NCBI RefSeq assembly: GCF_000016745.1
Contig: NC_009483.1
Location: forward strand, 660,001 to 692,000
Reading direction: 5' to 3'
Source: Geotalea uraniireducens Rf4
Lineage (GTDB): Bacteria > Desulfobacterota > Desulfuromonadia > Geobacterales > Geobacteraceae
Length of the DNA stretch: 32,000 nucleotides
Made by a program: the position numbers and the translations under genes. The notes under the pieces are model-generated. The model worked only from the letters and a program-made list of their open reading frames with translations. It made no database searches and was not told where the DNA came from. Numbering within the stretch: position 1 is the stretch's first letter; every line of letters begins with the position of its first letter. Below are positions 3,832 to 29,186 of this stretch, in pieces.

Positions 3832-3875
3832 TACATAATTTCGTAACTTTACAAGCCGTTCCAATTACAATCAGA

Positions 3876-3932
3876 GTCCAACACTTACGACCCGCCCAAA
3901 TAACCGGCGGGTCAAACCCAGGCCCGTTGAAC
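3876..3932 (+). other. integron attC recombination site (attC-2, 57 nt)
   Basis: GTCCAAC (3876-3882) and GTTGAAC (3926-3932) fit RYYYAAC and GTTRRRY. The inner stem is GACCCGCC (3889-3896) with GGCGGGTC (3906-3913). The spacers are unequal (6 versus 12 nt). It lies 44 nt after the stop of the preceding gene and 44 nt before the next start. Confidence 0.7.
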
Positions 3933-3975
3933 GATAAATTTCTGATGACAAACGGCACACAAGGGACTATGATTT

Positions 3976-4594: not shown

Positions 4595-4610
4595 CTCACA
4601 ACCGTTGGAC
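4545..4610 (+). other. integron attC recombination site (attC-3, 66 nt)
   Basis: GTCCAAC (4545-4551) and GTTGGAC (4604-4610). The inner stem pairs 4561-4571 (AACCGGGCGCG) with 4582-4592 (GCGCGCCGGTT), giving 10 bp and a single bulged G at 4567. It has the same length and the same end boxes as attC-1, but an unrelated interior. Confidence 0.7.
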
Positions 4611-4628
4611 CAGGAGAATAAACCAAAA

Positions 4629-5042: not shown

Positions 5043-5194
5043 GGGAAAATAGAGGGAGGGGCTGCGGGGGCAGGCGTGCAATTATGCAATTTGGTGAAGA
5101 ACCCAGCCAAAAATGAAGGCGTGAGTGGTCTTGGTAAAGGCAAATTCCAAATATTGGTTTGCAACACCTCAAATCTGAAGCAGAGGCAGTCCGT

Positions 5195-10102: not shown

Positions 10103-10202
10103 TGGTTGGCACCCCCCGAAAATAGTGTGTGTAAAAATCATCCCCCGTCGCGGCAGCAAACCATAAACGCCCGGCCTGCGCTGTCCTGCGGCGGATGACG
10201 TA

Positions 10203-10509
10203 AAAATGTAGTACGAAGGCCGCCTGCTTGCAGCGGAACAATTATTGCATGGTAATAAAAAAAATATTATTACAGTGCGTTACTTAATTCGGCTTGTGAC
10301 CGTATTTTAATAAAATATTATTATTGTTTGCGGGCGGTCAAGAGAAAAGAATCAAGTCATTTCGCTGCTATGATGACGTGGTTATTACATATTTTCATCA
10401 GGTTTTGCAATGGGCATGTTATGGGCGCGTATGAATCAGCCCGGCCGGAAGTAATAACAATGCTTGTCCTGCGTTTCCGATTTGCGACTTAGTCTACAGG
10501 GGGTGCACC
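10203..10509 (+). promoter_or_regulatory. AT-rich control region upstream of the cytochrome/giant-protein operon (divergent from the hydrolase gene)
   Basis: About 300 bp that are much more AT-rich than the surroundings. Palindrome GTAATAA-N8-TTATTAC (10252-10273). More half-sites: TTATTAC 10382-10388 and GTAATAA 10451-10457. A 12-bp direct repeat AAAATATTATTA sits at 10261-10272 and 10312-10323. A possible sigma70-like TTGTGA (10294-10299)-N16-TATTAT (10316-10321). GGGGGTG lies 6-7 nt before the TTG start. Confidence 0.4.
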
Positions 10510-13500
10510 TTGAGCAATGTTCAGGGGAAAGATAGTTTGACCACACTTAGGCTTTTATTGCTGGTCGCCATGCTCATATGGGCTGGTACGGCGGAAGCTT
10601 CGTTGCAATGCTATGACTGCCATGGCACGAAGAGCAGCGGGGACAACCGGCCGCTGGACGCCGCCTACAGAAACGTCACCACCGGAGGCTTCCAGGGAAC
10701 CCATCGCAACCATCTCCCTCCCAACGCCACCGGATCAAGCTGCGTTCTTTGCCATCCGGGGAGCGACGGCTATGTCCCCGGCCACCGGGACGGATTGATA
10801 CAACTCTCCACCAATATCAAGAATTCACCCGAGCCCGCCGTCTATAATCACTATACGACCCCCTTTCCCCAGACTCCGTCCCCCGAGCTCGGTTCATGTT
10901 CCAATGTCAACTGCCACTTCGAAACAACAACACCCCCTTGGGGGGACGCATCCCTGACCGTTCCCGCCGGATGCAGCGCCTGCCACGGCTTTCCGCCGGA
11001 TGACGGCAATCACCCGGCTATAATCGGCATCGGCAAGAAGCATGGCGACTATTACGGCACCGGCACCGAGAGCTGCGGCACGTGTCACAGCAGCCACAGC
11101 ACCTTTGCCCACGCCACCAGCGCCGGCAATCCCGGCAGAGGGCTGATCCTCGATTTTGCCGCCGCACCCAACAGCGGTGGCGACTACTCCCAGGCAATCA
11201 ATTTAACCTATCCCAACTACCTTCCCAGCCGGAACCCGGTCAGAAACGGTGCCTGCACGAACCTCTACTGCCACAGCGACGGCAAGGAAGGCGCAGCGAA
11301 AACCCAAGCCGTATGGGGCGGAACGCTGGATTGTACCGGCTGCCATAGCGGGGCCGGAGATACCACCGACCTGAGCGGCAGGCACGGCAAGCATACCGGC
11401 CCTTCGGGCTATGCCTTTGCCTGCTCCCGCTGCCATGTGGGAACCGTCGCAACTGTCAATGAACAGAACACCATCACCGATAAAACCCTCCATGTCAACA
11501 AAACCAAAGACGTGGCCTTCACGGAAGGTGGCAATTACAACCAAAGCGATAAAGGGTGCGTCAGTACCTACTGTCACAGCAACGGCGCAGGCGGAGCCCC
11601 GACCGTTGCCGTGAAGTGGACCGACACCGCACCGATGCAATGTTATTCCTGCCACAGGGGGCGGACCGGCGACAGCACCGAAGCCAACTGTACGGGGCAG
11701 CCGATCCTCGGCGTCTGGTCATCGGCCGGGAACGCCTGCACCCCGCCCCTCAACATGACCAGCAACGGCCATGCACGCCTGGTCGGTCCGCAGTGGATCA
11801 GAAAATACCCATGCAGCTATTGTCACAACGATACTGTCGACGGCAGCGGGAACATCAAGGACAGGACGAAACACACCAATGGTGCGAAAGATGTGGCCAT
11901 TTCGCCGCAATGGTCCATTTTGGGGGAAGAGGCGCCGACCTACAATCCGGCCACCAAGTCCTGCGACAACATTTACTGTCATAGCGACGGCACTGCCAAC
12001 CCGGAGAACGTCAGGCCCTTTGCCTGGACTGAGGGGAAGACCGAGTGCAATACTTGCCACGGCCACCCCCGCGGCTCCTGCTCGACGAAAAACTGCCACG
12101 ACAACCGGATCGATTACAACACCGGCAAGGTGTGGAATCTTCCGTCCATATTCGGCAACAACTCTTCGTATCAATGGCCGGCCGGCCAGGAGTGGAAGGC
12201 CGCCATCCCCATGTTCCACAATGAAGGCCCCGGAACGCAACGGGCAAATTCGCACCCCCGCCATACGGAAACCAGCTTCACCTGCGACAAATGCCACGCC
12301 GCCACCATTGCCAACGGCACCTGCGATTCTTGTCACACCAACGGCATCCCCGCCGGCAAAATGGGGGAATATGCCCACATAGACCCGGCCTATCACGTCA
12401 ACAGGACCAAAGATGTGGTGTTCATGGATGGCGGTTCATATAACGCGGTGGCCAAGACCTGTTCCAACACCGCCTGTCATACCGGCGGCACCGATCCAGT
12501 CTGGGGGGGCTCCGTCAACAGCGCCGTCATCTGCCTCAGCTGTCATGGTGTAACCGGGGCGGATATCGATGATTTCGGCTCTTTGGGCAACAGTGCGGAA
12601 ACGAGGATCGGCCAGGAGGCGAAAATCAGTCTGGTCGAGTGGGTGACCACCGGTCACGGCAGGTATTCCACGGCAGGGCGCTATCCCTCATCGGGCAATC
12701 CCGCGGCAAATTTCCCCGGCAATCCTTGCTGGTACTGCCACGACAACACCGTCCTGCATAAGGACACGACCAATCCTTTCAGGCTCCGCCTCCATCCGCA
12801 GTTCGTCCAGCGCTTCGAAAAGGAGTGCGTTTATTGTCACATGGAGCGCAAAAGCGACGGGAGCGAATGCGTGGCCTGCCACGTGGACCAGCCCGAATCC
12901 CTTGCTCCCCAGGCGACCGGCAGCGGTATTCTCTTTAGAAAGAGCGACGGCACGACCGAGGTCAGGTTTTCCGGCCACAGCCATGTCGACAACTGCATTA
13001 CCGGCGCCGCGGGGGGGTGCCACGATTCCGACAACGGTCTGTTCGACAACTTTTCATCCCACAAGGGGCACAACGCCAATGCGGGGGTGTGGAACAGCGA
13101 CCAGAAAAAGGATGTGAAAAATCAGTACCTGATGATGGGTGTTTGCCTCCAGTGCCATGACGATGACAGCGGCGACAAGTGCAACAGCTGCCATAAAATG
13201 GATACCGAGGCAAAAAAGGTCAAATATTCCCTCGGCTTTGACCCGGGCACCGGCTTCATCAAGCCGAAAAAGGCGCGGGCCTCGTCGGTCCACTTCGGCT
13301 ATAAGCATTACAGGGCGTACCAGCAGAACGGCGTCTGGCTGGGGGGCAAGTTCTGCTGGGACTGCCACGATCCCCATGGGGACGGCAACATCTATATGGT
13401 CCAGAGCAAGGTCGCCACATCGACAGAAGGCACCTTCGGCATTCCCCAGACGCGGGCCGATGTGGTCTTCAACAAAAAGCAGAGCGGTCTCGACTATGCC

Positions 13501-15528
13501 CGGACCCAGGCGCCCTACAACGGCATCTGCAATGTCTGCCATACGCCGGAGAGCAAGCACTTCACCCGATCGAGCGGCGACGGGCACAATGCCAGCCGCG
13601 TCTGCACCGTCTGTCACGAGCACAGGTTCAGCGACAGCCATGCCAACAGCCAGAGCTGTTCCGGCTGCCACTTCAACAAGCCGGTGCCGAGGCATTCGGG
13701 TTTCGGCCAGCCGCGGGACTGCACCAAGTGCCATGCCGGGACCGTAGGCATGCGGATGGACGTCATGGGGCAGATGCGGGGCACATCCCACCACGTGCAG
13801 GGGGTGGATGTAACCAACAAGCACTGTTATGCCTGCCATTGGGAGTCGACGCCGGAAGGGCTCATCGACGTCAGGCATCATGAGGGTTACAACTACAAGC
13901 TCTACACCTCGGTCAAAAACGCCAAGGTGGACCTGGTGGTGTGGAAGGCGGGGGAAAGGCCCACCTATTACAATTCCACCACTGCCGTCCAGTTCATTGC
14001 CGCCAACATCGGCACGGCCAATGAGAGGGGAGAGGCGGCCAAGCTGACCAATGTCTGTCTCTCCTGCCACAGCGACCGGAATAACGATAACCAAACGATC
14101 TTCGGCGACTGCAAGACCCCGAGGCAGTATGCCTGGGACGGCCAGAGCATCGATGCCCGCTATTCCCAGATGGGGACTACCCCCTGGGGCAAATACAATT
14201 CGACCACCTATCCGAATGTGACCAAGAAGGACACGGTCGCCAAGGCCTTATCTGCCCACGGCAACGCGGTGGGCAACGCCGGCGGTTTCGATCCGGCGAA
14301 CGGTCTTGACGCAGCCATCCCCAATACGAGGAATGGCAGCCAGAACGTCCATTGCTTCGACTGCCACAGTTCCCACGGCTCGAAGCTGGTCGGCGTGACG
14401 TCGAGCTATGTGACGTTCAACGGTACCCGGAACGGCGGCAACCTGAAAGAAACCCAGGCAGGCAAAGGTGGCTATGCCATGACCTACAAGGCCTCGTTCA
14501 ATAGCACGCCGGGGGCCGTGAACCCATACAGCGCCGGCGCAGGGCAGTGCTTCGACTGCCACAACACGCCGGCCGCGGGCATCACCCCCTGGGGGTACAA
14601 TTCCACCTTCGGAGCGACAGCGCCGATCATGGGATACAAGGACACTTCCCGCTTCGGCAACGGGACAAAGGCTTCGACCGTCCGTTTCCCTTATCGAACA
14701 AGCAAAAAGGATATCGTCAGCGGACACATGATACCGAGGGAAGCCGCCTTTCTCAATTATTCTGCAAAGGGTGAGATAAACGGCCTCTGCACCCCCTGTC
14801 ACGATCCCCACGGCGTAAGCACTTCGCTGGGTGGGAATCAAAGATACGCCGTGCCGCTTCTGAAAGGCACCTGGATGACCTCCCCCTACAAGGAGGACAG
14901 CCCTCCTCCCGATACTTCCGGGGCCACGTCAGTCCCCCCCCTCTCCTGGGGCAAGGCATTTACCTGGCCCGATAGGGTTGGATACGGAGGTACCCCGCCG
15001 GTCACCAACTACAACATCGACCGGACAACCTTCGGCGGTTCGACCCGTATCGGCGAGGACGCGTCCAGGTTTGCCGGGCTTTGCCTGCGCTGCCATCCGA
15101 AAGAAAACCTGACGGACGGCGTCCCGAACAATACGGCATGGAAGGGTGTCGACAGGGTCCATGAATCGGTCAAGGGATGGGGGGACACCTCTAAACCGAC
15201 GGAGCATTCCTATACCTGTTCCAAATGCCATGCGCCGCACAATTCCGGGCTGCCGCGGCTCCTGACGACCAACTGTCTCGATTCGAAGCACCGCGGCTAC
15301 AGGGTTTCGGGCGGGCAGGCCTGGACGGCAGATAAAGAAGCGACAGCCCTCGGCAATGGCGGCAGAGCCCATTCTTATGCCGGTCAGCACCGCGGTTTCC
15401 CCATAGGCAATGTGCTCGGCAATTCGGCAAGCTACGAGGCGACCAGCAGTTGCCATGCCGGCGCCCCGGGCAATACCGGGACCACCTGGCCGGACAGCAA
15501 CCGCTGGAACAATATAACACCATGGTAG
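10510..15528 (+). CDS. secreted giant multiheme c-type cytochrome (about 35 predicted heme-binding sites) with Geobacter-type CxxxxCH...CxxCH repeat units
   Basis: 1672 aa. Sec signal LLLLVAMLIWAGTAEA/S. Hand count: 29 CxxCH (CYDCH, CVLCH, CSACH, CGTCH, CTGCH, CSRCH, CYSCH, CSYCH, CNTCH, CDKCH, CDSCH, CLSCH, CWYCH, CVYCH, CVACH, CLQCH, CNSCH, CWDCH, CNVCH, CTVCH, CSGCH, CTKCH, CYACH, CLSCH, CFDCH x2, CTPCH, CLRCH, CSKCH). Plus 6 CxxxxCH (CSNVNCH, CTNLYCH, CVSTYCH, CDNIYCH, CSTKNCH, CSNTACH). Five CxxxxCH-(~20-27 aa, W)-CxxCH units look like the TIGR01904 domain. The TTG start is inferred. Confidence 0.92.
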   Translation: MSNVQGKDSLTTLRLLLLVAMLIWAGTAEASLQCYDCHGTKSSGDNRPLDAAYRNVTTGGFQGTHRNHLPPNATGSSCVLCHPGSDGYVPGHRDGLIQLSTNIKNSPEPAVYNHYTTPFPQTPSPELGSCSNVNCHFETTTPPWGDASLTVPAGCSACHGFPPDDGNHPAIIGIGKKHGDYYGTGTESCGTCHSSHSTFAHATSAGNPGRGLILDFAAAPNSGGDYSQAINLTYPNYLPSRNPVRNGACTNLYCHSDGKEGAAKTQAVWGGTLDCTGCHSGAGDTTDLSGRHGKHTGPSGYAFACSRCHVGTVATVNEQNTITDKTLHVNKTKDVAFTEGGNYNQSDKGCVSTYCHSNGAGGAPTVAVKWTDTAPMQCYSCHRGRTGDSTEANCTGQPILGVWSSAGNACTPPLNMTSNGHARLVGPQWIRKYPCSYCHNDTVDGSGNIKDRTKHTNGAKDVAISPQWSILGEEAPTYNPATKSCDNIYCHSDGTANPENVRPFAWTEGKTECNTCHGHPRGSCSTKNCHDNRIDYNTGKVWNLPSIFGNNSSYQWPAGQEWKAAIPMFHNEGPGTQRANSHPRHTETSFTCDKCHAATIANGTCDSCHTNGIPAGKMGEYAHIDPAYHVNRTKDVVFMDGGSYNAVAKTCSNTACHTGGTDPVWGGSVNSAVICLSCHGVTGADIDDFGSLGNSAETRIGQEAKISLVEWVTTGHGRYSTAGRYPSSGNPAANFPGNPCWYCHDNTVLHKDTTNPFRLRLHPQFVQRFEKECVYCHMERKSDGSECVACHVDQPESLAPQATGSGILFRKSDGTTEVRFSGHSHVDNCITGAAGGCHDSDNGLFDNFSSHKGHNANAGVWNSDQKKDVKNQYLMMGVCLQCHDDDSGDKCNSCHKMDTEAKKVKYSLGFDPGTGFIKPKKARASSVHFGYKHYRAYQQNGVWLGGKFCWDCHDPHGDGNIYMVQSKVATSTEGTFGIPQTRADVVFNKKQSGLDYARTQAPYNGICNVCHTPESKHFTRSSGDGHNASRVCTVCHEHRFSDSHANSQSCSGCHFNKPVPRHSGFGQPRDCTKCHAGTVGMRMDVMGQMRGTSHHVQGVDVTNKHCYACHWESTPEGLIDVRHHEGYNYKLYTSVKNAKVDLVVWKAGERPTYYNSTTAVQFIAANIGTANERGEAAKLTNVCLSCHSDRNNDNQTIFGDCKTPRQYAWDGQSIDARYSQMGTTPWGKYNSTTYPNVTKKDTVAKALSAHGNAVGNAGGFDPANGLDAAIPNTRNGSQNVHCFDCHSSHGSKLVGVTSSYVTFNGTRNGGNLKETQAGKGGYAMTYKASFNSTPGAVNPYSAGAGQCFDCHNTPAAGITPWGYNSTFGATAPIMGYKDTSRFGNGTKASTVRFPYRTSKKDIVSGHMIPREAAFLNYSAKGEINGLCTPCHDPHGVSTSLGGNQRYAVPLLKGTWMTSPYKEDSPPPDTSGATSVPPLSWGKAFTWPDRVGYGGTPPVTNYNIDRTTFGGSTRIGEDASRFAGLCLRCHPKENLTDGVPNNTAWKGVDRVHESVKGWGDTSKPTEHSYTCSKCHAPHNSGLPRLLTTNCLDSKHRGYRVSGGQAWTADKEATALGNGGRAHSYAGQHRGFPIGNVLGNSASYEATSSCHAGAPGNTGTTWPDSNRWNNITPW

Positions 15529-15584
15529 TAATGAACCGTAAGTTCAGAACCGAGAGACCGAAGAAGCTGACCGGAGGTAAGCCC

Positions 15585-18500
15585 ATGAGGCATGAAGCCC
15601 GTGAAATGAACTTGACGATAGATGCCGCTGTCCGCGGAAAACTTTTCCCTGCCATGCATTGCTGGTTGTCGTTGCTATTGGCCTTTTCGCTTTCCGTCGC
15701 AATCTCCGTTCCGGCTTTCGCAAAGGGGGGGGATGTCGTCTGGCAGACCGGCGACCCGCGGGGAGGCAAGCAGGAAGCTAAGTCCTCCGGGGTCGATGCG
15801 GCCGGCAACGTCATAATTGCCGGTTACCAGAACCTGAGCGGCACTACCGACGACGATTACCTGACGGTCAAGCTTAAGTCCGACGGCAGCGGCATTGCCT
15901 GGCGTGCCGCGTATAACAAGTCGGGTGGCTCTGATCAGGCGACAGCCGTGGTTGTCGATTCGGAAAACAATGTCGTCGTTACCGGTTATGCCTGGAACGG
16001 ACAGAACAACGATATTCATACCATAAAATACAACGGTTCCACCGGCTCGGTGATATGGGAGCATACCTTTGACGGCGCAGCCCGTGGCGACGACAGGGCC
16101 ACGGCAATTGCCGTGGACAATCTCAACAACGTTTATGTGGGTGGCTTTTCCCAGAATGCGCGGGTCAACGAAGACTATATTATTGTCAAATACGGCGCTT
16201 CCGGCCCTAATCCCGACGGTACTCCCCTCTGGCATACGACCTGGAACGCTACCGCAGACGGCACGGACAAGCTTGCCTCGATTTCAGTCGGTGTGGGCTG
16301 CATTGCCGCCACCGGTTATTCCTGGAACGGTGCTGACTTCGACTATCTGACCATCAAGTTCGACCTTAACGGCAATAAGCTCTGGGACATGCGCCATGGC
16401 TCATCGGTCCCGGCGGGGCTCAAGGAAGACCAGGGGAAATTCACCAGGATCGACCCTGCGGGCGACGTCGTTATCACCGGTTATGTCTCCAACACCATCG
16501 ATAAGGATATCTATACAGCAAAGTACAACGGCGCAACCGGCGCCCTCGTCTGGGAACGGACGTATAACGGTGCCTATGACGACGAACCCAACGGCCTCTT
16601 TGTCGACAGCAGGGGGGATGTCTATGTCACCGGCTACACCTGGACGATCGACGCTCACAACGACTACTATACGGCAAAATACGCCGGTACGGACGGGGGG
16701 CTTTTGTGGGAAAACACCTTCAATTCCAGCGGCAGCAATGACGACATCACCTCGGCTACGGGCATCGTCGTCGATGAGGCGGGCGATGTCTTCGTCACCG
16801 GCTACAGCATAACGGCGGGCAACTATGATTTTCAGACGCTGAAATATAAAAAGGACAACGGCACCGAACTCTGGCACAGCAGCTTCAACGGCACTGCCGG
16901 CAAAAACGACCGCCCGGTCGGTATCGGGCTCGATCCACTGTCCGGCATGGTCTATGTTGCCGGCTGGTCGGACATGACCGCTTCTCTGGACAGCGGGGTC
17001 GCAACCGCGGCCAGCACCAATTTGACGGTGGAGAGCGCTAAGAGCTGGTCGGCCGATCAATGGGCCGGTTACCACGTCATGATGACCAGTGGTGGGAATA
17101 GCGGTGTGAGCAGGCATATTGCCGGCAACAGCGCCACCACCCTGACGCTCTCGACCCCTTTCGCCAAACCGGTTGCCGCGGGAGACACCTATTACCTCTA
17201 TGATCAGGAAGACCTGGACTATCACCTGATCAAATACGATCCGGGTCTCCTGAACCGCCCCACCGGCCTTACCGCCCAAACCCTTTCGAACAGTTCCGTA
17301 AAGCTGACCTGGACGGACAACACGAGCAGCGAAACCGGATTCAACGTCTACCGCAAGGTCGGCGAATTCGGCGCATGGGAGAGGCTCCTTCCTCCTGCTC
17401 CGGCCCCGCCGACGGACCCCACGGTGCGCGCCGGCGTCGTCACCTACGACGACACGGGGCTGACTGCAAACACGTACTACTACTACCAGGTAACCGCCTA
17501 CGACGGCACGGAATCGCACCCGAGCGACCCGGCCAAGGCTTTGACCGTCTTCGTCAGCTATCCGCTCCCCGCCTGGAGCTTTGTCTACAACAACCCCGAC
17601 AACTTTGATGATTTCGCCAACGCGATTGCCGTCGGTCCCGACAACAATCCGGTCGTCACCGGCCAGAGCCTGCGCACTGCCGGCGGCTTCGATTACTACA
17701 CGGTCAAGTTCAGGAACTCGGACAAAAGCCTGCTCTGGAGCGACCTCTACGACAGCCCCGACAGCGCACTGGACATAGCCATGTGCGTGGCGGTCGATGG
17801 CGCGGGCGATGCCATAGTTTCGGGCTATTCGGAGCTTTTTAACGGTACGAGCGGCAACACCCCCCATATTTATACGACGAAATACCCGGCAGCCGGTCCA
17901 CCGGCATTGTGGCATCACCAGTACATCGGTTCGGCGCGCATCGATGACCGGGCCGTGGCCATCGCCTCGGCGGTCGACTCATCCAACAACAGCGTGGTCG
18001 TAGGTTACGGCAAGAACGCGGCGGGCAACGAGGACATCTACCTCATCAAATATCCGTCGACACCCGTTCTCGACGGCAACAACAGCGCAACCCCCGCCTG
18101 GACAGCCACCCCCTTCGACGGCGGAGGCGACGATTTTCCCAATACCGTGGCCTTCGGCAAGGGTGGCGATATCTTCGTCACCGGCTATAGCAAGAATGTG
18201 GCGACCGGTAATTACGACGTCTTTGTCGCCAAATACAGCGGTGCGACAGGTGCGCGCATCTGGACGGACACCTTTGAAGGTCCGGGGCTTGGCGACGACC
18301 GGGGGGCGGCCCTGGCCACCGATGCAGCCGGTGACTTCTACGTTGCCGGTGTTGCGGTCAACGCGGCCGGCAACAAGGACTTTTTCACCATCAAGTACGA
18401 CGGGAGCAGTGCGTCAGTACAGCGGCTCTGGCAGCCGACTTTCTTCGACGGCGCTGCCCACGGCGACGACGAAGCGGTTGCCGTCAGTATAGATCCGATA

Positions 18501-21500: not shown

Positions 21501-24500
21501 TACGGCAACGCCCTGAGCCTCTCCGGTGCGGCAAATCACGCCAAAAAAGACACGGTTACCCTGCCGACGGGGAACGTCGCCACGGTGGAGGCATGGATAT
21601 TCCCCACCGGGTACTCACCGGGCAATGCCTATAACGGCATCGTCTCGTGGGGACCCAGGTCCGGCACCGCGGTCTCGTTGCTGTTGAGCATCCAGGACGG
21701 CGGCCGGCCGAGCATGGCCACCTGGGGGAACGATTTCGTGCCTGGGAGCGGCCCGGCCGCAACCCTCAACGCCTGGAACCACATTGCCGTCGTCCTTGAC
21801 GGCAAGGCGGTCACACTGTACATGAACGGCCAGCCGGTCAGCGGAGCGGTCAGCGCCGATATCTTGCCGAGCATTCAGTCAAAGAACCTCTCCATCGGCT
21901 CCACCGACAATCCGGGCAGGAATTTCCAGGGGAAGATAGACGAAGTGCGTATTTACAACCGTGCCCTGTCCCCGCAGGAGATCGCTTCCAGTTACGCCGC
22001 AGTTTTGCCCTCTGCCAGTGTTAATCTGGGCGCGGCGGAACCTGCGCCCGCCATTCCCCAGGAGTGGCAGGGTAGCTGTTCCCTTGTGACTCCGCAGTCG
22101 GCCGGTAAAACCCCGGTCCCGCCAAAACCGACGGGGCTGACCCTCACATGGGTTTCGGAGGCGCAGCTGGATCTGGGTTGGACGGACAATGCCAATGATG
22201 AGAGCGGCTATTATGTGGAGAGGATGTGCACGGCCGGGCCCGGCTGCACCGACACGGACTTCGCCCCGGTGCCGAACGGTGATCTCTCACCCCGTACGGG
22301 GACCGGCGCGATGACCTTCAGCGACAAAACCGGCCTGAGGCCGAACAACATCTACGCCTATCGGGTAAGGCCCTACAAGAACGTCGTCTGCGGCAACATC
22401 TGGGACAACGCCGGCGGCAGCCTCTATTCGGACGTGAAGTCCGCTACGACAACGGTCAAAGATCCGTCGGCAATAGCGGCGACTGCGGCATTCGGCACCA
22501 GCTGCAACGATATCCGCCTCACCGACAGCGACGGCAGCACCTCCTTGAGCCAGTGGGTGCAGCAGCTGCAATGCAATACCACCGGCACCCGCGTCTGGCC
22601 AAAGGTCCCGACGATTCCTGTCGGAGACAAAACCATATATCTCTATTACGGAAACTCTTCGGCCCCTTCGGTTGACAATGGGGATACGACCTTCGAGTTC
22701 TTCGACGATTTCAGCGGGAAAAAGGCCGATGGGTCGCCATTGTCGCCGCCATATATCGACCCGGACAAGTGGACTGTAAACGACCTGACCGGCTTCAGCG
22801 TGTCGGGCGGATATCTGCACGGTACAAACACGACCGGCCGATTGACCTCGAAATTTTTGCTTTCCGCCGATAAACTCATGACCCTCAAGGCGAAAACCAC
22901 GAGTTCGGCGACCGGTGGCCAGATAATCGGCGGTGTTTACCTCTCGGCAACCGACCATCTCGGTTTCCTCAACCGTCCCGCAGACGGCGGTTACCAGCTG
23001 AACGGCAGCCAGGTGCTGTCGGTTGCCACCCCGGCTCCGGCGCACAACCTGGGTTACACCCTCAATTATACGAGCCCGTCGACAGTCAATATGCAGGCCT
23101 ATGACTGGGATACCGGCGCCTGGTATCTGAGTCCGCTCACCGTCTCGGCGACCATCGCCGGCAAACCCGTCGTGCTCGGCAGGCAGTATGTCACGGACGG
23201 CGCCAATGGCCAGGCATACCTTACCGACTGGGACTGGGTCCTGGTGCGCAAGGTAGCGAATCCCGCGCCGACGGCTGCATTGGGGCAGAAGGAGTACGGC
23301 TCCTTCAACGTCGGCGGCGACACCTTCAGCGTGCGCAAGCCCATAACCATAACCCACAGCGCCACAGGCGCAGCGCCGCTGACGGATTACCAGCTTCTCT
23401 TCCCCACAGTGGACACGACCTCCCTGGCGACGGACCGGATAACCATCGGTTGGGTCGACAACACAGCAACCGAGAGCGGTTTCACCATCGAGAGATGTAC
23501 CGCCGGCCCTGCCGGGTCGGCAGATTGCACAAGCTGGGACAGAACCATCCCGGTCGCTCCGAATGCCACCAGCTATGCCGACACCAACCTCCCCCTTGCC
23601 ACTAAATACTGCTACCAAATCAGGGTCGACATTCCCGACGTTGTCACGACATTCTCCGCGCCGGTCTGCGCCACGACGTCCGTGCCGACTCCACCCTTCA
23701 ACCTCACCGTTTCCGTGAACGGCACGCGGGTGGATCTTGCCTGGAGCGACACGACGCCCGGCGTTCCCGACGGCTATATGGTCGAGCGCTGTTCCGATAC
23801 GGGGTCGGGGTGCGTTTTCAGCGGCTCGGACCCCAGCTTCACCACCTTTACGGTGGACCGTGCGTCAAAGGCCTTTATCGACCCCTCCGCCTGCAGCGGC
23901 ATCTACAACTATCGGGTCAAGTCGGTCAAGCCATGGATCAGCGGCTGGCCCGCCGATTACACCAATGTCGTCACGGCTTCTCTGACCATCCCGCCGAAGC
24001 CGACAGGCGTTACGGCAAGTCGGTCCTCCGAAAGCCAGATCAACCTCACCTGGACCGACAACACCACCGACGAGACCGGCTACCGGGTCGAGCGGAAGTG
24101 CGTCAGCGGCCCCCCCTCCTCTCCCTGCCCGGACAGCGATTTCCATCAGGTGGGACAGGACCTGCCGGCAAATCCCGGCACGGGAGCCATGTCCTTCAAC
24201 GACTTCGGCTTGACTCCGGATACGACCTATCTCTACCAGGTGACCTCCTTCAAGTCGGCCGGCTGTTCCTGGCTTGCGGTGAGCGACCCGTCTGCCGACG
24301 AAACGACGACCTTGACTAACCCGGCCAACCTGACCGCCACCGCCATCAATACCACCCAGATCAACCTTTCCTGGAGCGATACGACCTCGGGCGAGAGCGG
24401 TTTCGTCGTTGAACGCTGCACCGATGACGCATGCACAACCCCGACGATCCTCACTCCGCCGGCAGGGGTCAATGCGACCAACTATGCCGATACCACGGTA

Positions 24501-27500
24501 TGCAATGCCTTAACCCCCTATTATTACCGTGTCAAGGCCTTCAAGTCCGCCAACCTCTCCTCTGCCGGCGGCGGGGCCTGGACAAGGCGCGCCCTTCTGG
24601 CAATAACCGGTTTCCAGCCCAATTACCAGATGAAGCTGACCATACGGTCCGCGGACTATCCCGGCATGCAGCCGGATTTCAGGGACGTCCGTTTCTACGA
24701 CGCCACCACCGGCAGTGAGCTCTCCTACTGGATCGAAGGCGTATCCGCGGGGACTGCCGTCATCTGGGTGAAAACCGCCGCAAACAGCGCGATCTACCTC
24801 TATTACGGCAATACGGCGGCAGCGGATGCGTCCAGCGCTGCCAGCACCTTCGAATTCTTCGACGACTTCAGCGGGACGAATATCGATGCCAGTAGGTGGA
24901 ACGTAGTCGATCCGACAGGGTTCACCGTTTCCGGCGGCTCCCTGCACGGGACCAGCACCAGCGGCAGGCTGACTTCGAAAGCGACCTTTGCCGCGGGCAT
25001 CACGCTGGATATCAAGGCGCGGACCACCGCCGTTGCCGTCAACGGCCAGGCCATCGGCGGCTTTTACCTCAGTGCCGCCAACCACATCGGCTGGATGGCT
25101 GATCAATCCACCTCCAAACTCTACGCGGTCAAAAACGGCTCCATTTACAGAAATACGAACAGCAGCACGGCAAACCTTCTCTATACCCTGACCGTAAAAA
25201 GCGCCTCGACGTCGAGCCAGCAGCTCTATAATCTGGACAGCTCCTCGCCGGACCAGTACCTGGGGACGGGGGTGGATACCTCGTTCACGTTCGCCAGCTC
25301 CCCTATCGTCCTCGGCAGAAGCTACAAGGACGATCTGCACAACGGCCAAGCCTATGCAACTGACTGGGACTGGATCCGTGTCCGCAAATACGCGGCCGTT
25401 GAACCGGCTGTGACGGTGGGAGCGGTGGAATCTTCCGCGGGGTACAGCTTCGTCAATACCTGGTATGGCGACACCCCTTACAGTGCAACGGCTTTTGCCA
25501 CCACCTCGACGGTGGTCCCCCCCGGCGGGCTGAGCGCCACCAGGGCCTCGGAGGCGCAGATAAACCTATCCTGGACCGACAACGCCAATGATGAAACCGG
25601 CTTCAAGGTGGAGCGCTGCACCGGCGCAACCTGCGACTTCACCACCCTGGACGTCGGCTTCCCGGTGGAACTCGGGGCAAATGCAATCTCCTACAGCGAC
25701 CCGCTGCTGGTCCCCGACACACCCTACCGCTACCGGGTGCGCGCCTATAAAACCGCTTTCTGCAACGGCGGCTGGACCAGCGACCCGTCCAATGTCTCCG
25801 GCGATGTTACAACCGGCATAGCTCCGGCCAGTTTGACTGCCACCCCCTTCAACACCACCCAGATGGACATTTCCTGGTCCGATACCACCCAGGCGGAAAA
25901 AGGGTTCATCGTCGAGCGGTGCGAGGGGAGCGACTGCAATTTCACGCAGATAGGATCGGTCGGACCGCATAAGGTAAACTTACTTGCGCTCTATACTTTC
26001 AATAACAACCTTAACGACTCGTCAGGAAACGGCCTGAACCTGACCGGTCCTGCGCCGGTTTACGATGAGGGGGGACTGCTGATGACCACCGGCACGGTCT
26101 ATCAGAGCCCCGTGACCAGCATCCTCGATACGGACGACCACACCATCGAGTTCGACATCAAGATAAGGTCCACCAACGCCGGCTGGACGAGGATTTTCTC
26201 CTATACCCCTGCCGGCACGGACCGAAGCCCGGGGTTGTGGCTGGCGGACGGCAACCGGGCGCTTTTGCACTGGCGTTACGACCCGGCTAACAAGGGGGTC
26301 GATTACCTGGGGGTGAACGGCAACAACGGGACTCCCTTTACCCTCGGCGCCTGGTATCATGTGCGCGGCGTCAAGACGGGCCGCTATTTCAAGGTGTATG
26401 TGGACGGCACGCTGGTCGTGGACATGATCGTTTCCAATCCCAAAACTGCCGGTCCTTCAGCGCTCTACTTCGGCGGTGCCGATGTCTCCATCAGGAACTT
26501 CACCGTCTCCAGCAGCACGGAAGTCGTCTATTCCGACACCACGGCTTGCAACGCCGTCCCCTACAGCTACAGGGTACGCGCCGTCAATGGAGGGCTTGCA
26601 GCAGACGGCGGCGGCTGCTGGAAAAACAGGGCGCTGCTTGCCATCGGCGGTTTCCAGCCGAACCACCAGACCAGGGTGACCATTGCCTATAATGCGGCGA
26701 TGAATGCGGACTTCAGCGATATCCGTTTTTATGACGCAACCAGCCGGAGCGAACTCCCCTACTGGATAGAAAAGAAAACTGACGGCGCCTCGGCGACGGT
26801 CTGGTTCAAGAGCGGCATGAACAACAATATCTATCTCTATTACGGCAACGGGAGCGCATTGCCTGCCGCGGACGGCGCTGCCGTGTTCGAGTTTTTCGAT
26901 GACTTCGCGGGCACGGTGGTCGATTCGGGCAAATGGAAGATAATCGACGGCACAGGCTTCAGCGTATCGGGGGGCTATCTGCACGGGACGAATTCGACCG
27001 GCAGGCTGACATCAGCCAAACCATATGCGTCCGGGGTGGTTCTGGATGTCAAGGCAAAGACGACACTGACGGCTCCTTCCGGCCAAACAGTCGGCGGGCT
27101 GGTGCTGTTGCCCGACTTGTACAATTATATGGGATTCGCAAACGCCGCCGGTGCCGTAACCTACACGTATAATACGAACAGCGGCCCGCTTCCAGCAGCC
27201 AATATGCTCTATACCATCAAAGTTAAGGACTCCCAGACGACAAACCTCCAGGTGGATAATTGGGACACAGGGACGCCGTTCTGGGTGATCGGCAATGTTT
27301 CGAAAGCGATCACCGGGCACAACATCGTGCTGGGTAGGCGGGTCGACACGACGTTCAACTTAGACCACCTCAATGAGCCGTATGTGACGGATTGGGACTG
27401 GGTGCGCGTCCGCAGGTATGCGGCAGCCGAACCGACTGTCAGCGTTGGCGACCGGGAGACATCGTCCTGTTATGCCTTTGACGGTTCGTGGCCGGTCCCT

Positions 27501-28832
27501 CTTTACAGCAACACGGTACAGAAGGCAACTGCTGCGCCGGCTGTGCCAGGCGGGCTCGGGGGGGCGGCGACCGACAGCCAGGTCAGCCTGAGCTGGAATG
27601 ACAACACGGGCGATGAAGCGGGATTCAAGGTCGAGCGATGCGCTGACTCGGGATGTGCCTCTGCGGCAGAGATCGGAACGTCCGGCCCGAACGTGAACCT
27701 GTTCACCGACACCGGGCTTTCCCCGTCGACCAACTACTGCTACCGGGTAAGGGCATACAAGCCCCAGCCGTGCAACAGCGAGTGGAATTCCGGCTACAGC
27801 CCGGTCGCCTGCGTAGCCACCGGCGCTGCCCGGCCTTTCAACCTGACGGCCGTTGCCCTGAACTCCATGTCGGTAAGGCTCGACTGGAGCTCGGACGTTG
27901 CCGCCAATGAGGACGGCTTTGAAATAGAGCGCCAGGTGTGGGACGGCGAATGGCAGAAGTGGGGAAAGGTGGAGGCCAATGTCACCACCTTTACGGACAC
28001 GGTCGGCGTCGAGCCGCTGAAGAGGTACAGATACCGGGTGCGGGCGTTCAACAACAACGATTTCGGCGATTTTGACGCCGGCATCGATGCGACGAAGTGG
28101 GACCAGCGGGGTGTTGTTCTCGATAACGCCGGCGCCATCATCCTGGATGTGAAAACTCCACCTATCACCATAGTCGATGCAAACGGCACGGAGCAATTGA
28201 CCGCTGCCGACGGCAACGTCGAGTTCCTCACCTCGAGCCCGGGCGGGGGGGCGGCTGCCAAGTACAACTGGCTGCGGATGTCGTTGAAGAACCCCGCAGT
28301 GGTGAACGGCGATTTTGATCTGCAGATCGACTATCGTCTGCCGGACGGCCAGGTAAGCTCGGCCAACTACCATGTTTACGGGAGGTTGCAGGTCAACTTC
28401 CTTAATACTGCAGGCGGTTCCAATTATGCATATATCGAGCGCGCCATCGGCAACGGCGACAACAATTACGGCGTCGTGGCCGCAATCAACGGCGCTACGT
28501 CTTCTGCCGCCGTCATAACAGCGGACACCTCCGGCAAGCTGCGGATAACGAGAAAAGCGGACACTGTTTCTCTCTATGCCTGGACCGGCGGCAAATGGTC
28601 GCTCGTTCACGAAGTAACGGGTGCATCGGCCTCTGCCGCGACCTTTGTCGGTTTTACCCAGTACGTGCAGAGGATTGAAGCGGTCGGTCTCAGAACGGTC
28701 ATCGATAACTTTGCACTTTCACCGGCTCAATCAGAATACAGCAACACGGCTACCGTAACGTTCACCAATCCTGACGGCTCGACGATCTTCACGACACCGG
28801 CGTATGCTGCCGGCGACAACGTCTGTCGATAG
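15585..28832 (+). CDS. giant secreted multidomain protein (~4415 aa): 2 SBBP-type beta-propellers, ~14 FN3, 5 DUF2341, ~7 LamG/ConA-like jelly-roll domains
   Basis: One uninterrupted ORF. I prefer ATG 15585 (GGAGGT 6 nt upstream). Signal peptide ...MHCWLSLLLAFSLSVAISVPAFA/KGG. Blade repeats ..A.AV.VDS.NNVVVTGY....(N)DY.T.KY...G...W at ~15.72-17.25 and ~17.55-18.89 kb. FN3 signature L.WTDNT..ETGF.VERC...C seen 14 times. DUF2341 signature DFSDIRFYD....ELPYWIE.....A.VW.K......IYLYYGN near 19.57, 21.18, 22.5 (divergent), 24.67 and 26.71 kb. Laminin_G_3 signature GL.GYW.F.E...D.SG.GN...W.H.....DG....LY.NG......G.IDEVRIYNRAL...EI at ~19.75-20.41 and ~21.36-21.99 kb. FEFFDDF...DWDWV.VRK jelly rolls at ~22.69-23.28, 24.85-25.42 and 26.89-27.45 kb. 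Domain borders are approximate. Confidence 0.9.
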   Translation: MRHEAREMNLTIDAAVRGKLFPAMHCWLSLLLAFSLSVAISVPAFAKGGDVVWQTGDPRGGKQEAKSSGVDAAGNVIIAGYQNLSGTTDDDYLTVKLKSDGSGIAWRAAYNKSGGSDQATAVVVDSENNVVVTGYAWNGQNNDIHTIKYNGSTGSVIWEHTFDGAARGDDRATAIAVDNLNNVYVGGFSQNARVNEDYIIVKYGASGPNPDGTPLWHTTWNATADGTDKLASISVGVGCIAATGYSWNGADFDYLTIKFDLNGNKLWDMRHGSSVPAGLKEDQGKFTRIDPAGDVVITGYVSNTIDKDIYTAKYNGATGALVWERTYNGAYDDEPNGLFVDSRGDVYVTGYTWTIDAHNDYYTAKYAGTDGGLLWENTFNSSGSNDDITSATGIVVDEAGDVFVTGYSITAGNYDFQTLKYKKDNGTELWHSSFNGTAGKNDRPVGIGLDPLSGMVYVAGWSDMTASLDSGVATAASTNLTVESAKSWSADQWAGYHVMMTSGGNSGVSRHIAGNSATTLTLSTPFAKPVAAGDTYYLYDQEDLDYHLIKYDPGLLNRPTGLTAQTLSNSSVKLTWTDNTSSETGFNVYRKVGEFGAWERLLPPAPAPPTDPTVRAGVVTYDDTGLTANTYYYYQVTAYDGTESHPSDPAKALTVFVSYPLPAWSFVYNNPDNFDDFANAIAVGPDNNPVVTGQSLRTAGGFDYYTVKFRNSDKSLLWSDLYDSPDSALDIAMCVAVDGAGDAIVSGYSELFNGTSGNTPHIYTTKYPAAGPPALWHHQYIGSARIDDRAVAIASAVDSSNNSVVVGYGKNAAGNEDIYLIKYPSTPVLDGNNSATPAWTATPFDGGGDDFPNTVAFGKGGDIFVTGYSKNVATGNYDVFVAKYSGATGARIWTDTFEGPGLGDDRGAALATDAAGDFYVAGVAVNAAGNKDFFTIKYDGSSASVQRLWQPTFFDGAAHGDDEAVAVSIDPIDGAVVVAGTTLTAAGDHDFTIVRYTPAGQPLWSRTLQRPADDDYLKAMGTDNSGNIIVTGHTGDGVTTDSMTLKYDYEGTLIVATIYDGAAQGFDQSNAIAVNSLGEAYIAGYTTNVDGNADYLVYSLPAEPIQAPLPLTAAPKYTTVALSWQDYSTVEDGYHIQRKVGACSAANVWTQADLIKTTNPDATSYPDAGLTSGQTYCYRVQSFRTNGAESRWVEKQVTTAVPAAPGSVTATPDNTTQVTVNWSDNTGGETGFRVERCLDAGAGCDFTTRDTFVTAPDATTFTDSTACADKTYNYRVMAINRGLSFDGGGAWTRRAPLSIADFQPNVLTRMTIAYDGRTDLAGVPMKADFSDIRFYDETGRTELPYWIESKSDGVSANVWIMGGANNAVYLYYGNAGAAGASNVNNIFGSGLVGYWPFNESAGIPAAIADLSGRGNNAALNGFISPYGVVSAGKYGNGLSLDGSNDYLTVPDTTGSSLDITGSITVEMWYKYEQSQPWARIISKPTAGGPQPWDLYAIALNDNGNRQKPYFVISSTNTWNNLPTDNYVVMGPELVVGNWYHLVGRYNRATGRVSIIVDGIEYGATVTPITLAVSNDPLTMGTRGVYGGNAKGGVDEVRIYSRALTDEEIARDSRYAITVTVGTAEQEGAGYVFAGTFTGLISATAQAKTPSPGQPGPLTLSRVSEAQINLSWTDTTTDETGFRVERCKDASCVQTELPSHAGTGAMTLTDTGLEPNTTYSYSVRALKTGACGWDDAVSALVSETTTVNPPVVTSVTAVNTTRLDVAWTDDVVSNSGYRVERCAGTSATCGAQGASFSVIGGSTARNYSDTEACAGTDHTYRVCAVFNGLSGSGAPWSMRAPLTFDNNSFQPNFKTRLTVYYNAAMNPDFSDIRFYDAAADRELPYWIESKTDGVSANVWIKTGDNNAVYLYYGNRNATSASKLSGVFGSGLMGYWQFNEPAGIPAVISDLSGQGNNVVPTSFIAPYGVVAGGKYGNALSLSGAANHAKKDTVTLPTGNVATVEAWIFPTGYSPGNAYNGIVSWGPRSGTAVSLLLSIQDGGRPSMATWGNDFVPGSGPAATLNAWNHIAVVLDGKAVTLYMNGQPVSGAVSADILPSIQSKNLSIGSTDNPGRNFQGKIDEVRIYNRALSPQEIASSYAAVLPSASVNLGAAEPAPAIPQEWQGSCSLVTPQSAGKTPVPPKPTGLTLTWVSEAQLDLGWTDNANDESGYYVERMCTAGPGCTDTDFAPVPNGDLSPRTGTGAMTFSDKTGLRPNNIYAYRVRPYKNVVCGNIWDNAGGSLYSDVKSATTTVKDPSAIAATAAFGTSCNDIRLTDSDGSTSLSQWVQQLQCNTTGTRVWPKVPTIPVGDKTIYLYYGNSSAPSVDNGDTTFEFFDDFSGKKADGSPLSPPYIDPDKWTVNDLTGFSVSGGYLHGTNTTGRLTSKFLLSADKLMTLKAKTTSSATGGQIIGGVYLSATDHLGFLNRPADGGYQLNGSQVLSVATPAPAHNLGYTLNYTSPSTVNMQAYDWDTGAWYLSPLTVSATIAGKPVVLGRQYVTDGANGQAYLTDWDWVLVRKVANPAPTAALGQKEYGSFNVGGDTFSVRKPITITHSATGAAPLTDYQLLFPTVDTTSLATDRITIGWVDNTATESGFTIERCTAGPAGSADCTSWDRTIPVAPNATSYADTNLPLATKYCYQIRVDIPDVVTTFSAPVCATTSVPTPPFNLTVSVNGTRVDLAWSDTTPGVPDGYMVERCSDTGSGCVFSGSDPSFTTFTVDRASKAFIDPSACSGIYNYRVKSVKPWISGWPADYTNVVTASLTIPPKPTGVTASRSSESQINLTWTDNTTDETGYRVERKCVSGPPSSPCPDSDFHQVGQDLPANPGTGAMSFNDFGLTPDTTYLYQVTSFKSAGCSWLAVSDPSADETTTLTNPANLTATAINTTQINLSWSDTTSGESGFVVERCTDDACTTPTILTPPAGVNATNYADTTVCNALTPYYYRVKAFKSANLSSAGGGAWTRRALLAITGFQPNYQMKLTIRSADYPGMQPDFRDVRFYDATTGSELSYWIEGVSAGTAVIWVKTAANSAIYLYYGNTAAADASSAASTFEFFDDFSGTNIDASRWNVVDPTGFTVSGGSLHGTSTSGRLTSKATFAAGITLDIKARTTAVAVNGQAIGGFYLSAANHIGWMADQSTSKLYAVKNGSIYRNTNSSTANLLYTLTVKSASTSSQQLYNLDSSSPDQYLGTGVDTSFTFASSPIVLGRSYKDDLHNGQAYATDWDWIRVRKYAAVEPAVTVGAVESSAGYSFVNTWYGDTPYSATAFATTSTVVPPGGLSATRASEAQINLSWTDNANDETGFKVERCTGATCDFTTLDVGFPVELGANAISYSDPLLVPDTPYRYRVRAYKTAFCNGGWTSDPSNVSGDVTTGIAPASLTATPFNTTQMDISWSDTTQAEKGFIVERCEGSDCNFTQIGSVGPHKVNLLALYTFNNNLNDSSGNGLNLTGPAPVYDEGGLLMTTGTVYQSPVTSILDTDDHTIEFDIKIRSTNAGWTRIFSYTPAGTDRSPGLWLADGNRALLHWRYDPANKGVDYLGVNGNNGTPFTLGAWYHVRGVKTGRYFKVYVDGTLVVDMIVSNPKTAGPSALYFGGADVSIRNFTVSSSTEVVYSDTTACNAVPYSYRVRAVNGGLAADGGGCWKNRALLAIGGFQPNHQTRVTIAYNAAMNADFSDIRFYDATSRSELPYWIEKKTDGASATVWFKSGMNNNIYLYYGNGSALPAADGAAVFEFFDDFAGTVVDSGKWKIIDGTGFSVSGGYLHGTNSTGRLTSAKPYASGVVLDVKAKTTLTAPSGQTVGGLVLLPDLYNYMGFANAAGAVTYTYNTNSGPLPAANMLYTIKVKDSQTTNLQVDNWDTGTPFWVIGNVSKAITGHNIVLGRRVDTTFNLDHLNEPYVTDWDWVRVRRYAAAEPTVSVGDRETSSCYAFDGSWPVPLYSNTVQKATAAPAVPGGLGGAATDSQVSLSWNDNTGDEAGFKVERCADSGCASAAEIGTSGPNVNLFTDTGLSPSTNYCYRVRAYKPQPCNSEWNSGYSPVACVATGAARPFNLTAVALNSMSVRLDWSSDVAANEDGFEIERQVWDGEWQKWGKVEANVTTFTDTVGVEPLKRYRYRVRAFNNNDFGDFDAGIDATKWDQRGVVLDNAGAIILDVKTPPITIVDANGTEQLTAADGNVEFLTSSPGGGAAAKYNWLRMSLKNPAVVNGDFDLQIDYRLPDGQVSSANYHVYGRLQVNFLNTAGGSNYAYIERAIGNGDNNYGVVAAINGATSSAAVITADTSGKLRITRKADTVSLYAWTGGKWSLVHEVTGASASAATFVGFTQYVQRIEAVGLRTVIDNFALSPAQSEYSNTATVTFTNPDGSTIFTTPAYAAGDNVCR
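19430..27450 (+). repeat. intragenic module repeats (FN3-FN3-DUF2341-jelly roll) within the giant gene, recognisable at DNA level
   Basis: For example, 19566-19706 versus 21183-21323 match at about 112/141 nt by hand alignment, including a 26-nt identical run AACGCCGTTTACCTCTATTACGGCAA. A third, more diverged copy starts at 26709. Confidence 0.8.
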
Positions 28833-28896
28833 GGTGAAGGGGGAAGGTTCCCGAAAACAGACGGATTGAAGGGGATGGGGCGTTGGACGGCGTGAC

Positions 28897-28934
28897 GGCA
28901 GGACATGCTCGCAAGAGATGTCCTGCCTTTTTTT
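28897..28934 (+). terminator. rho-independent terminator of the cytochrome/giant-protein operon
   Basis: Perfect 10-bp stem GGCAGGACAT (28897-28906) with ATGTCCTGCC (28918-28927), an 11-nt loop, then T7 (28928-34). It lies 65 nt after the stop codon. Confidence 0.9.
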
Positions 28935-29002
28935 ATCATACGATTCGCGCAAGTTGTGGTAATGTTTCATTGTCAAATATTTAACCTGAAAACGGCAGTT
29001 AG

Positions 29003-29155
29003 GCACGGATTACCAGAAGTAGGCGCCTCCAGGCGACACGGATTTGGACGGATTGACACGGATAAACCAAGGAGATTTCCGATAACACTTTGGGTCTTGG
29101 TTCTCGGTCTTTTTAATCCGTAAAATCCGTACAAATCAGATTTGATCCGTGTGCA
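29003..29155. repeat. phased ACGGAT / ATCCGT hexamer array with overall dyad symmetry (function unknown)
   Basis: Forward copies: CACGGAT 29004-29010, CACGGAT 29037-29043, GACGGAT 29047-29053 and CACGGAT 29057-29063; the last three are spaced exactly 10 bp apart. Central hairpin AACCAAG (29066-29072) with CTTGGTT (29097-29103). Reverse copies ATCCGT at 29116-29121, 29125-29130 and 29145-29150 (ATCCGTGTG). Confidence 0.7.
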
Positions 29156-29186
29156 ATGCTTTTTCCAGGTTTAAGGATGCTGAAGA

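Follow-up and report, generated by a model that had tools for sequence, protein, structure and literature searches.

Geobacter-type genomes commonly encode very large multiheme cytochromes that have no porin partner. One of them is encoded in Geotalea (Geobacter) uraniireducens Rf4, within a stretch of 32,000 nucleotides (nt) of contig NC_009483.1 (positions 660,001 to 692,000 of the forward strand; hereafter the window, whose own positions are used for all coordinates), where it is directly followed by the gene of a giant secreted modular protein. Comparison of related loci supports the view that the cytochrome and the giant form a functionally coupled unit, retained side by side across dozens of metal-respiring bacteria.

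In the porin-cytochrome conduits of Gram-negative metal reducers (Mtr, Pcc/OmbB-OmaB-OmcB and Ext), as presumably in the window pair, multiheme cytochromes carry electrons outside the cell. The pair differs from them in having no porin, no periplasmic partner with 8-10 hemes and no lipoprotein signal on the cytochrome, and is therefore not a conduit of this type. Nor is the cytochrome a known nanowire subunit such as OmcS, OmcE, OmcZ or the archaeal analogues, since it is of the wrong size and has no relative of known structure (a phmmer search of all PDB chains gives no hit at E ≤ 0.01).

β-Propeller proteins encoded beside surface multiheme cytochromes are an established theme. The NHL-repeat protein GSU2505, encoded beside omcS, is considered necessary for OmcS to be properly assembled or expressed, and omcE clusters always encode two β-propeller lipoproteins as well as a large β-barrel. 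Desulfovibrio ferrophilus (DFE_0448-0451, DFE_0461-0465) and the Uet system (UetHI) likewise encode propellers with multiheme cytochromes, but as small stand-alone NHL proteins in multi-cytochrome clusters, accompanied in Uet by a porin and a peptidyl-prolyl isomerase. The authors who described these propellers proposed that they act as sites of protein-protein interaction and stabilize the cytochrome complex. With the omcS and omcE clusters the window locus shares its occurrence in Desulfuromonadia, the genetic coupling of an extracytoplasmic multiheme cytochrome to a β-propeller protein, and a presumed role in extracellular electron transfer (EET). Whereas the cytochromes of those clusters are polymerizing subunits of 4-8 hemes, that of the window is a single chain of 1672 amino acids with 35 motifs; its partner's propellers are of the SBBP type, doubled, and fused to a stalk (800-3100 amino acids in the family), and, unlike in the omcE clusters, no β-barrel gene lies beside the pair. 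The giant has no NHL (PF01436) match at E ≤ 0.01, whether searched whole or in pieces: it shares the fold class of those propellers, with repeats of another family.

Large single-chain cytochromes have also been described. Cluster 2 of Soares et al. 2024 (PMC11492766) contains long wire-like cytochromes of Desulfuromonadia with 27 heme motifs, predicted to be extracellular and lying outside any porin-cytochrome operon. That study flags them as uncharacterized and a priority, mentions no partner gene, and notes that for many long wire cytochromes a periplasmic location is predicted. The window cytochrome resembles cluster 2 in being large, single-chained, wire-like and without a porin operon, but the cluster 2 representative has 130.7 kDa and 27 motifs where members of the window family have at least about 1450 amino acids and 32 core motifs; the two may be different families. 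Ga0056053_03448 of Geoalkalibacter ferrihydriticus, another member of the Desulfuromonadia, unites 24 hemes and two FN3 domains on one polypeptide and is encoded after a 38-heme cytochrome; FN3 domains again accompany a very large cytochrome, whereas in the window hemes and FN3 domains are divided between two co-inherited proteins, of which the non-heme partner is far larger. In a partial literature search we found no description of the pairing itself. An earlier note on this DNA had not recognized the pairing as a described electron-transfer system, and to that extent it stands; the theme, a propeller protein beside a surface cytochrome, is not new.

Conservation of the Gene Pair

All features described here lie on the forward strand. 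The cytochrome gene (10510-15528; product identical to ABQ24785.1 / WP_011937510.1) precedes the giant gene (15585-28832; 4415 amino acids, identical to WP_198134514.1). A cytochrome scan of one genome per species finds 79 loci in about 55 genomes, with counts made on the best 80 loci. The genomes belong to Geobacter, Geotalea, Geoanaerobacter, Pelobacteraceae, Desulfuromonadaceae, Geothermobacter and Trichloromonas, and further to Nitrospirota/Thermodesulfovibrionia, Desulfobulbia and one Polyangiaceae metagenome-assembled genome (MAG). The earlier note had proposed a synteny search for a TIGR01904-type cytochrome directly followed by a DUF2341/LamG giant gene. A homologue of the giant follows the cytochrome on the same strand in 60 of the 62 related loci in which the cytochrome gene has at least 1.5 kb of downstream sequence, and in 61 after correction of a frameshift that splits the cytochrome at locus L045. 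Measured to the partner start that is served by a Shine-Dalgarno sequence, the gaps are tight (median 40 nt, interquartile range 17-56), and some of the genes overlap. Looking up in the reverse direction, from homologues of the giant's N-terminus, reveals a TIGR01904 cytochrome of 1525-1734 amino acids directly upstream in 5/5 cases, which include G. daltonii FRC-32, Geobacter sp. DSM 9736 and one contig with two tandem pairs. In G. metallireducens GS-15 (CP000148.1, about 2.796-2.811 Mb) the partner is an FN3/DUF2341/LamG protein of 3507 amino acids, whose start overlaps the cytochrome stop.

In several genomes the pair stands by itself among unrelated housekeeping genes, and its flanks vary between genomes, so that the pair is autonomous. 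Could the two genes simply have come to lie side by side, by chance or in one lineage, without any functional link? This has virtually no probability left, because the adjacency is kept in about 55 genomes of several phyla, is recovered in both search directions and persists while the flanks change: synteny refutes it. The two proteins have also diverged together. Their distances are correlated (Mantel r = 0.75 over 51 pairs, with a maximum of 0.24 in 2000 permutations) and the nearest neighbor is the same locus for both in 30/51; the pairs have thus duplicated and diverged as units.

Several loci or genomes hold more than one pair. Tandem or multiple pairs per genome are seen at L084 (8001-22378), L023, L050 and L031, while genomes often have three or four dispersed and strongly diverged pairs, as in Geobacter sp. 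OR-1 and a Desulfuromonadaceae MAG.

The Cytochrome

The earlier note had described a secreted cytochrome of about 35 hemes, and a motif count agrees: 29 CXXCH and 6 CX4CH motifs make 35 heme sites, behind a cleavable Sec-type signal peptide that by reading covers approximately residues 1-30. Profile matches assign the protein to the CxxxxCH/CxxCH-domain family, with TIGR01904 at 135.3 bits (cutoff 27) in five stretches and PF09698 (GSu_C4xC__C2xCH) at 71.2 bits (cutoff 21.7); Cytochrome_C7 is also matched. No lipobox is found on reading the signal peptide, which ends in AGTAEA and is followed by SLQC; the cysteine of SLQC is part of the first CXXCH motif.

Most of the heme array is strictly conserved. 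Among the 35 motifs, 29 occur in every one of 51 aligned relatives and another 3 in 92-98% of them, which makes 32 that are invariant or almost so; the other three belong to one extra TIGR01904 unit, found in 24% of relatives. Of the six CX4CH motifs, five are kept in at least 92% of these sequences and the sixth (residue 350) in only about 24%. Identity among relatives is 60-73% over residues ~700-1450. Conservation extends to the very end of the chain, which in the window reads WNNITPW (15508-15525): 57 of 59 complete cytochromes have WNxx[TS]xW no more than 15 residues from the end, 46 of them at the exact end, and the family form is WNxVTPW-COOH.

The array is larger still at loci L019 and L048, where cytochromes of about 2560 amino acids carry 46 CXXCH and 9 CX4CH motifs (55 heme sites) and a partner of about 2100 amino acids still follows.

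The Giant Partner: Head, Stalk and Tail

The 56-nt spacer between the genes (15529-15584) holds a GGAGG at 15573-15577, and the ATG at 15585, 7 nt further on, gives the 4415-residue product on which RefSeq agrees. GenBank (ABQ24786.1) places the start earlier, at ATG 15531, for a product of 4433 amino acids and a gap of 2 nt to the cytochrome stop. Residues 1-46 form a cleavable Sec-type signal peptide. Pfam profiles match five DUF2341 modules (333 bits), three Laminin_G_3 modules (181 bits) and many fn3 modules (194 bits), all above their cutoffs, and the SBBP matches (PF06739, 50-56 bits against a cutoff of 20.5) place the propellers in that family. The picture of a propeller/FN3/DUF2341/LamG protein of about 4415 amino acids, 56 nt downstream of the cytochrome and with a VERC-type motif in its FN3 spacers, is thus confirmed by the Pfam matches, by the start with its Shine-Dalgarno sequence and by a [VI]ERC motif in 12 FN3 modules. 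Such cysteine-rich FN3 domains would fit an oxidizing, extracytoplasmic location. Motif mapping gives the module order of the whole giant as mFFFDLFFDLFDCFFFFDCFLFDCFF, in which F stands for FN3, D for DUF2341, L for LamG, C for a ConA-like unit and m for a 75-residue module. A PDB sequence search with the giant returns generic LamG and FN3 matches only.

The first ~1280 residues, a double SBBP propeller with FN3 domains, are the only part common to all partner homologues. In the window the conserved core (residues 47-1245; 15723-19319) consists of SBBP propeller 1, a 75-residue insert, an FN3 domain, SBBP propeller 2 and another FN3 domain. AlphaFold2 predicts residues 47-1245 to be all-β with a mean predicted local distance difference test score (pLDDT) of 89.7, and the strand pattern of the model fits two β-propellers, each followed by FN3. 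Its best Foldseek match is the SBBP-type β-propeller of CylK (E = 9e-19). The propeller and FN3 ectodomains of ROS1/Sevenless are also among the matches (E ~1e-17 to 1e-11, TM-scores 0.13-0.15), as an architectural analogue only: there too propellers alternate with FN3 domains to make a ligand-binding head on a stalk, but those propellers are eukaryotic, of the YWTD type and about 10% identical, and no evolutionary or functional link is implied.

Behind the head, the stalk is variable. In the window (19320-28793) it is composed of FN3 domains, DUF2341-LamG and DUF2341-ConA-like units and a C-terminal ConA-like region, and the giant is the longest among the complete partner genes in these loci. 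The commonest partner is an FN3-only protein of about 2050 amino acids; other stalk classes add DUF2341, LamG or ConA-like units (the window, G. metallireducens and several MAGs), and further partners have 7-8 tandem 75-residue modules in the stalk. The lectin-type modules are optional, because only the propeller-FN3 head is common to all partners. To judge from the partners compared, the DUF2341/LamG/ConA modules are a lineage-variable, interchangeable type of stalk, an optional decoration and not the conserved partner of the cytochrome. Where the earlier note saw the cytochrome coupled to a protein of binding modules, this applies to the propeller/FN3 head and not to the DUF2341, LamG and ConA-like units.

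The extreme C-terminus is again conserved (TPAYAAGDNVCR, 28794-28829, with a cysteine at -2). Of the 49 complete partners, 41, representing several stalk classes, end in aromatic-x4-8-Cys-x0-2-COOH, and the family form of this ending is TPxYxxGDxxCx-COOH, with the cysteine at -2. The conserved ends of both proteins could serve in docking, sorting or cross-linking; we know of no described sorting signal that resembles them.

Two relationships considered for the giant were rejected. The profile of TafC from haloarchaeal Tat-fimbriae (NF052521) scores 60.5 bits against a cutoff of 410 and matches one DUF2341-LamG unit only (residues 1392-1609). A giant RTX adhesin of the LapA/SiiE kind, secreted by a type I secretion system (T1SS), is not what is encoded here either, as the protein has a Sec signal, no RTX/hemolysin-type Pfam match and no adjacent transporter genes.

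A Repeat Module Shared between Cytochromes and Partners

The insert after propeller 1 (residues 466-544; 16980-17216) is a module of about 75 amino acids, M75, which has no Pfam family of its own and resembles Phage_BR0599 only distantly, below the threshold. In about 15 loci including the window it lies in the N-terminal part of the partner, mostly after propeller 1, and in about 22 in the cytochrome itself (in the C-terminal part in about 19, near the N-terminus in 3 Nitrospirota loci); no case combines the two sites. Related loci that bear it include L013, L019, L032, L062, L066 and L078. Tandem repeats of M75 are widespread, being present in 944 representative proteins. As a 'Rosetta stone' link between cytochrome and partner the module was downgraded to weak support, because it is a promiscuous repeat distantly related to Phage_BR0599.

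Transcription and Translation Signals

We infer that the cytochrome and giant genes are co-transcribed. The region 5' of the cytochrome gene (10160-10509), whose G+C content of 44% (36% at 10220-10420) compares with 60% in the genes, is the AT-rich control region that the earlier note had placed there, and it is 82% identical to the corresponding region of the relative at locus L001, with long conserved blocks. It contains sigma-70-like hexamers at 10294-10324, a type of match that overall is not above chance, and a Shine-Dalgarno-like AGGGGG (10498-10503) upstream of the cytochrome start. No riboswitch or other RNA family is detected by Rfam in 9800-29400 or in the 5' region.

The earlier note had also reported neither a hairpin nor a T-run between the genes and a terminator only after the second. 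The latter is correct: an intrinsic terminator at 28897-28934, with a perfect, G+C-rich stem of 10 bp (GGCAGGACAT/ATGTCCTGCC) followed by T7, is sited only after the giant gene. The spacer has no T-run, and a promoter/terminator scan, whose counts are not above the shuffled expectation, finds no internal terminator with a T-run between the two genes; the real terminator escapes the scan on account of a loop of more than 8 nt. The absence of a hairpin at the junction is only approximately true, because the RNA there folds moderately (-26.4 kcal/mol, z = -2.3) around the ribosome-binding site of the giant: 15537-15547 pairs with approximately 15606-15617, enclosing that site and the start codon. 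This structure could serve translational coupling or control, or could be due to chance.

Neighboring Genes

Downstream of the terminator lie the genes of two further proteins with signal peptides, a secreted CarboxypepD_reg/DUF4198/NosD β-helix protein of 669 amino acids (29187-31196; ABQ24787.1) and a secreted CarboxypepD_reg-like protein of 264 amino acids (31198-31992), both recognized by Pfam. Homologues of the CarboxypepD_reg/NosD-like kind are found beside about half of the pairs whose giant gene is complete, often directly adjoining or overlapping its stop codon. Judging by this recurrence, the unit is probably larger than two genes. It ends after the fourth, because in the near-identical metagenomic relative at L087 PilZ and RecBCD genes lie beyond the gene of the 264-residue protein. 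On its left the module is bounded by divergent α/β hydrolase and RmuC genes, and both flanks are common to the 90%-identical relative L001. The two-gene unit of the earlier note therefore stands as regards coupling (60-61 of 62 loci, 5/5 in reverse, co-divergence) and falls as regards size, with two further genes in about half of the loci.

The same note had seen in the window none of the usual companions of a conduit, a porin and a small periplasmic cytochrome, and rightly so; nor are they found in the flank at L087 or as recurrent neighbors in about 80 related loci. No porin-like Pfam match occurs among the scanned open reading frames (ORFs) of the window, the other neighboring ORFs being RmuC- and α/β-hydrolase-like, and Pfam and clustering, the only methods applied here, reveal no recurrent β-barrel family in the ~80 related loci. 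The window has no second ORF rich in heme motifs; such an ORF occurs in only a few related loci. Other recurrent neighbors (histidine kinase, HD_5, ResB-like, MCP and RND pump genes) were set aside as generic and inconsistent.

Near the left end of the window, 600-5100 is a low-GC stretch (41-43% at 3000-5000) of mobile and accessory genes, with an IS91-type Y2 transposase fragment (617-1381), an ISL3 transposase (1998-3239), a BrnT/CopG-type toxin-antitoxin pair (3976-4594) and a DUF3795 protein (4605-5042). At 5229-6079 two ORFs overlap in different frames, one for the N-terminal part of a DUF4062 protein and one RecG-C-terminal-like with HATPase_c_4 and helix-turn-helix (HTH) domains; they may be a frameshifted or decayed gene.

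Possible Roles of the Partner

The locus belongs to a widespread two-gene module whose genes are inherited together, often with the two CarboxypepD_reg/NosD-like genes added. Its first gene encodes a Sec-exported, single-chain cytochrome, a presumed 'wire', with a core of 32 heme sites, 35 in the window copy. The double-propeller/FN3 head of the partner would most likely bind or hold this cytochrome outside the cytoplasm, and the variable FN3-based stalk, here with DUF2341, LamG and ConA-like modules, would position the complex or anchor it, either within the envelope or matrix or facing a target that is solid or a polysaccharide; different specificities may then come with the paralogous pairs and stalk classes. 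To this scaffold we give an even chance. Physical contact between the two proteins, their extracellular location and their role in EET are what we infer from the arrangement and composition of the genes.

Several observations weigh against such a scaffold. One cytochrome, that of the Polyangiaceae MAG (L052), is truly without a partner, the only such case. Co-divergence is to some degree expected for any two tightly linked genes, and the either-or pattern of M75 is partly so. The AlphaFold2 model of cytochrome residues 700-1672, from an alignment of 73 sequences, has a mean pLDDT of 49.5 and is unusable, so that a wire-like shape would follow from the density of hemes and from a published model whose family may be a different one. 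No T1SS, T2SS (type II) or T5SS (type V) secretion gene or transporter gene is found nearby: there is neither an encoded outer-membrane route nor a known C-terminal sorting signal, and a Sec-exported giant of ~460 kDa could stay in the periplasm. At L052 a CarboxypepD_reg/NosD-like gene adjoins the cytochrome on the opposite strand.

Is the partner a structural component at all, or does it act only while the cytochrome is being made? It could be a transient assembly, secretion or maturation factor whose propellers chaperone or export the very large, loop-rich holo-cytochrome, with the stalk serving another purpose. The propeller head alone is conserved while stalks are freely exchanged, as one would expect of such a factor, and a role of this kind has been suggested for the propeller genes beside omcS and omcE, where GSU2505 would take part in the assembly or expression of OmcS and omcE clusters always have their two propeller lipoproteins. 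A chaperone has no need, however, of a stalk of 800-3100 amino acids, yet one is kept in every partner, and the conserved cysteine tail suggests that the end of the stalk has a conserved role of its own; duplication one to one and co-divergence suit a stoichiometric partner at least equally well. This makes a passing role in assembly rather unlikely. We regard with similar reserve the proposal that the two products are co-regulated and physically independent, the giant as an adhesin or matrix protein and the cytochrome as a released or separate electron carrier. LamG/ConA, DUF2341 and FN3 modules are indeed typical of adhesins, and operons often join products that are functionally related without interacting. 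Yet the adhesin-like modules are precisely the part that is not conserved, most partners having an FN3-only stalk, and one-to-one pairing across Desulfuromonadia, Nitrospirota and Desulfobulbia, together with duplication as pairs, is tighter than co-regulation requires.

Both proteins might instead remain in the periplasm, the cytochrome as a periplasm-spanning or storage wire and the giant as its scaffold, with no direct role at the surface. The signals are of the Sec type only, neither a sorting signal nor a system for export across the outer membrane is found in the neighborhood, and a periplasmic location is predicted for many long wire cytochromes (PMC11492766). Against this, an FN3/lectin rod of 2000-4400 amino acids would, by its domain count, far exceed the width of the periplasm, and arrays of lectin-like and FN3 domains are typical of surface proteins, so that confinement to the periplasm seems distinctly improbable.

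If the partner does hold the cytochrome as a scaffold, the pair may represent a third architecture for EET, a 'wire on a stalk', beside porin conduits and polymerized nanowires; this broader proposal is tentative, and we consider it more doubtful than the scaffold itself. A monomeric heme wire, tens of nm long, would dock through its conserved C-terminal region onto the double-propeller head, and the FN3/lectin stalk could exceed 100 nm. Stalk types and paralogous pairs would tune which surface, matrix or partner cell is reached, and the CarboxypepD_reg/NosD-like proteins would be further components of the envelope.

Implications for Electron Transfer in Geobacter Relatives

The module bears on how large cytochromes are exported, held and used, and on the role of the β-propeller proteins that recur in electron-transfer clusters. 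It offers a clean test case, as it consists of two highly conserved, strictly paired genes, encodes a core of 32 heme sites and is present in multiple copies. The pair is present in the cultured strains G. uraniireducens Rf4, G. daltonii FRC-32 and G. metallireducens GS-15, and published gene deletions exist for G. metallireducens. Should the partner prove to be an export or assembly factor, it would clarify a step that is missing from current models. If it holds the wire on a long, exchangeable stalk, this would explain how these bacteria reach solid acceptors or partners without pili or polymerized filaments, and would provide a natural modular scaffold for bioelectronic design.

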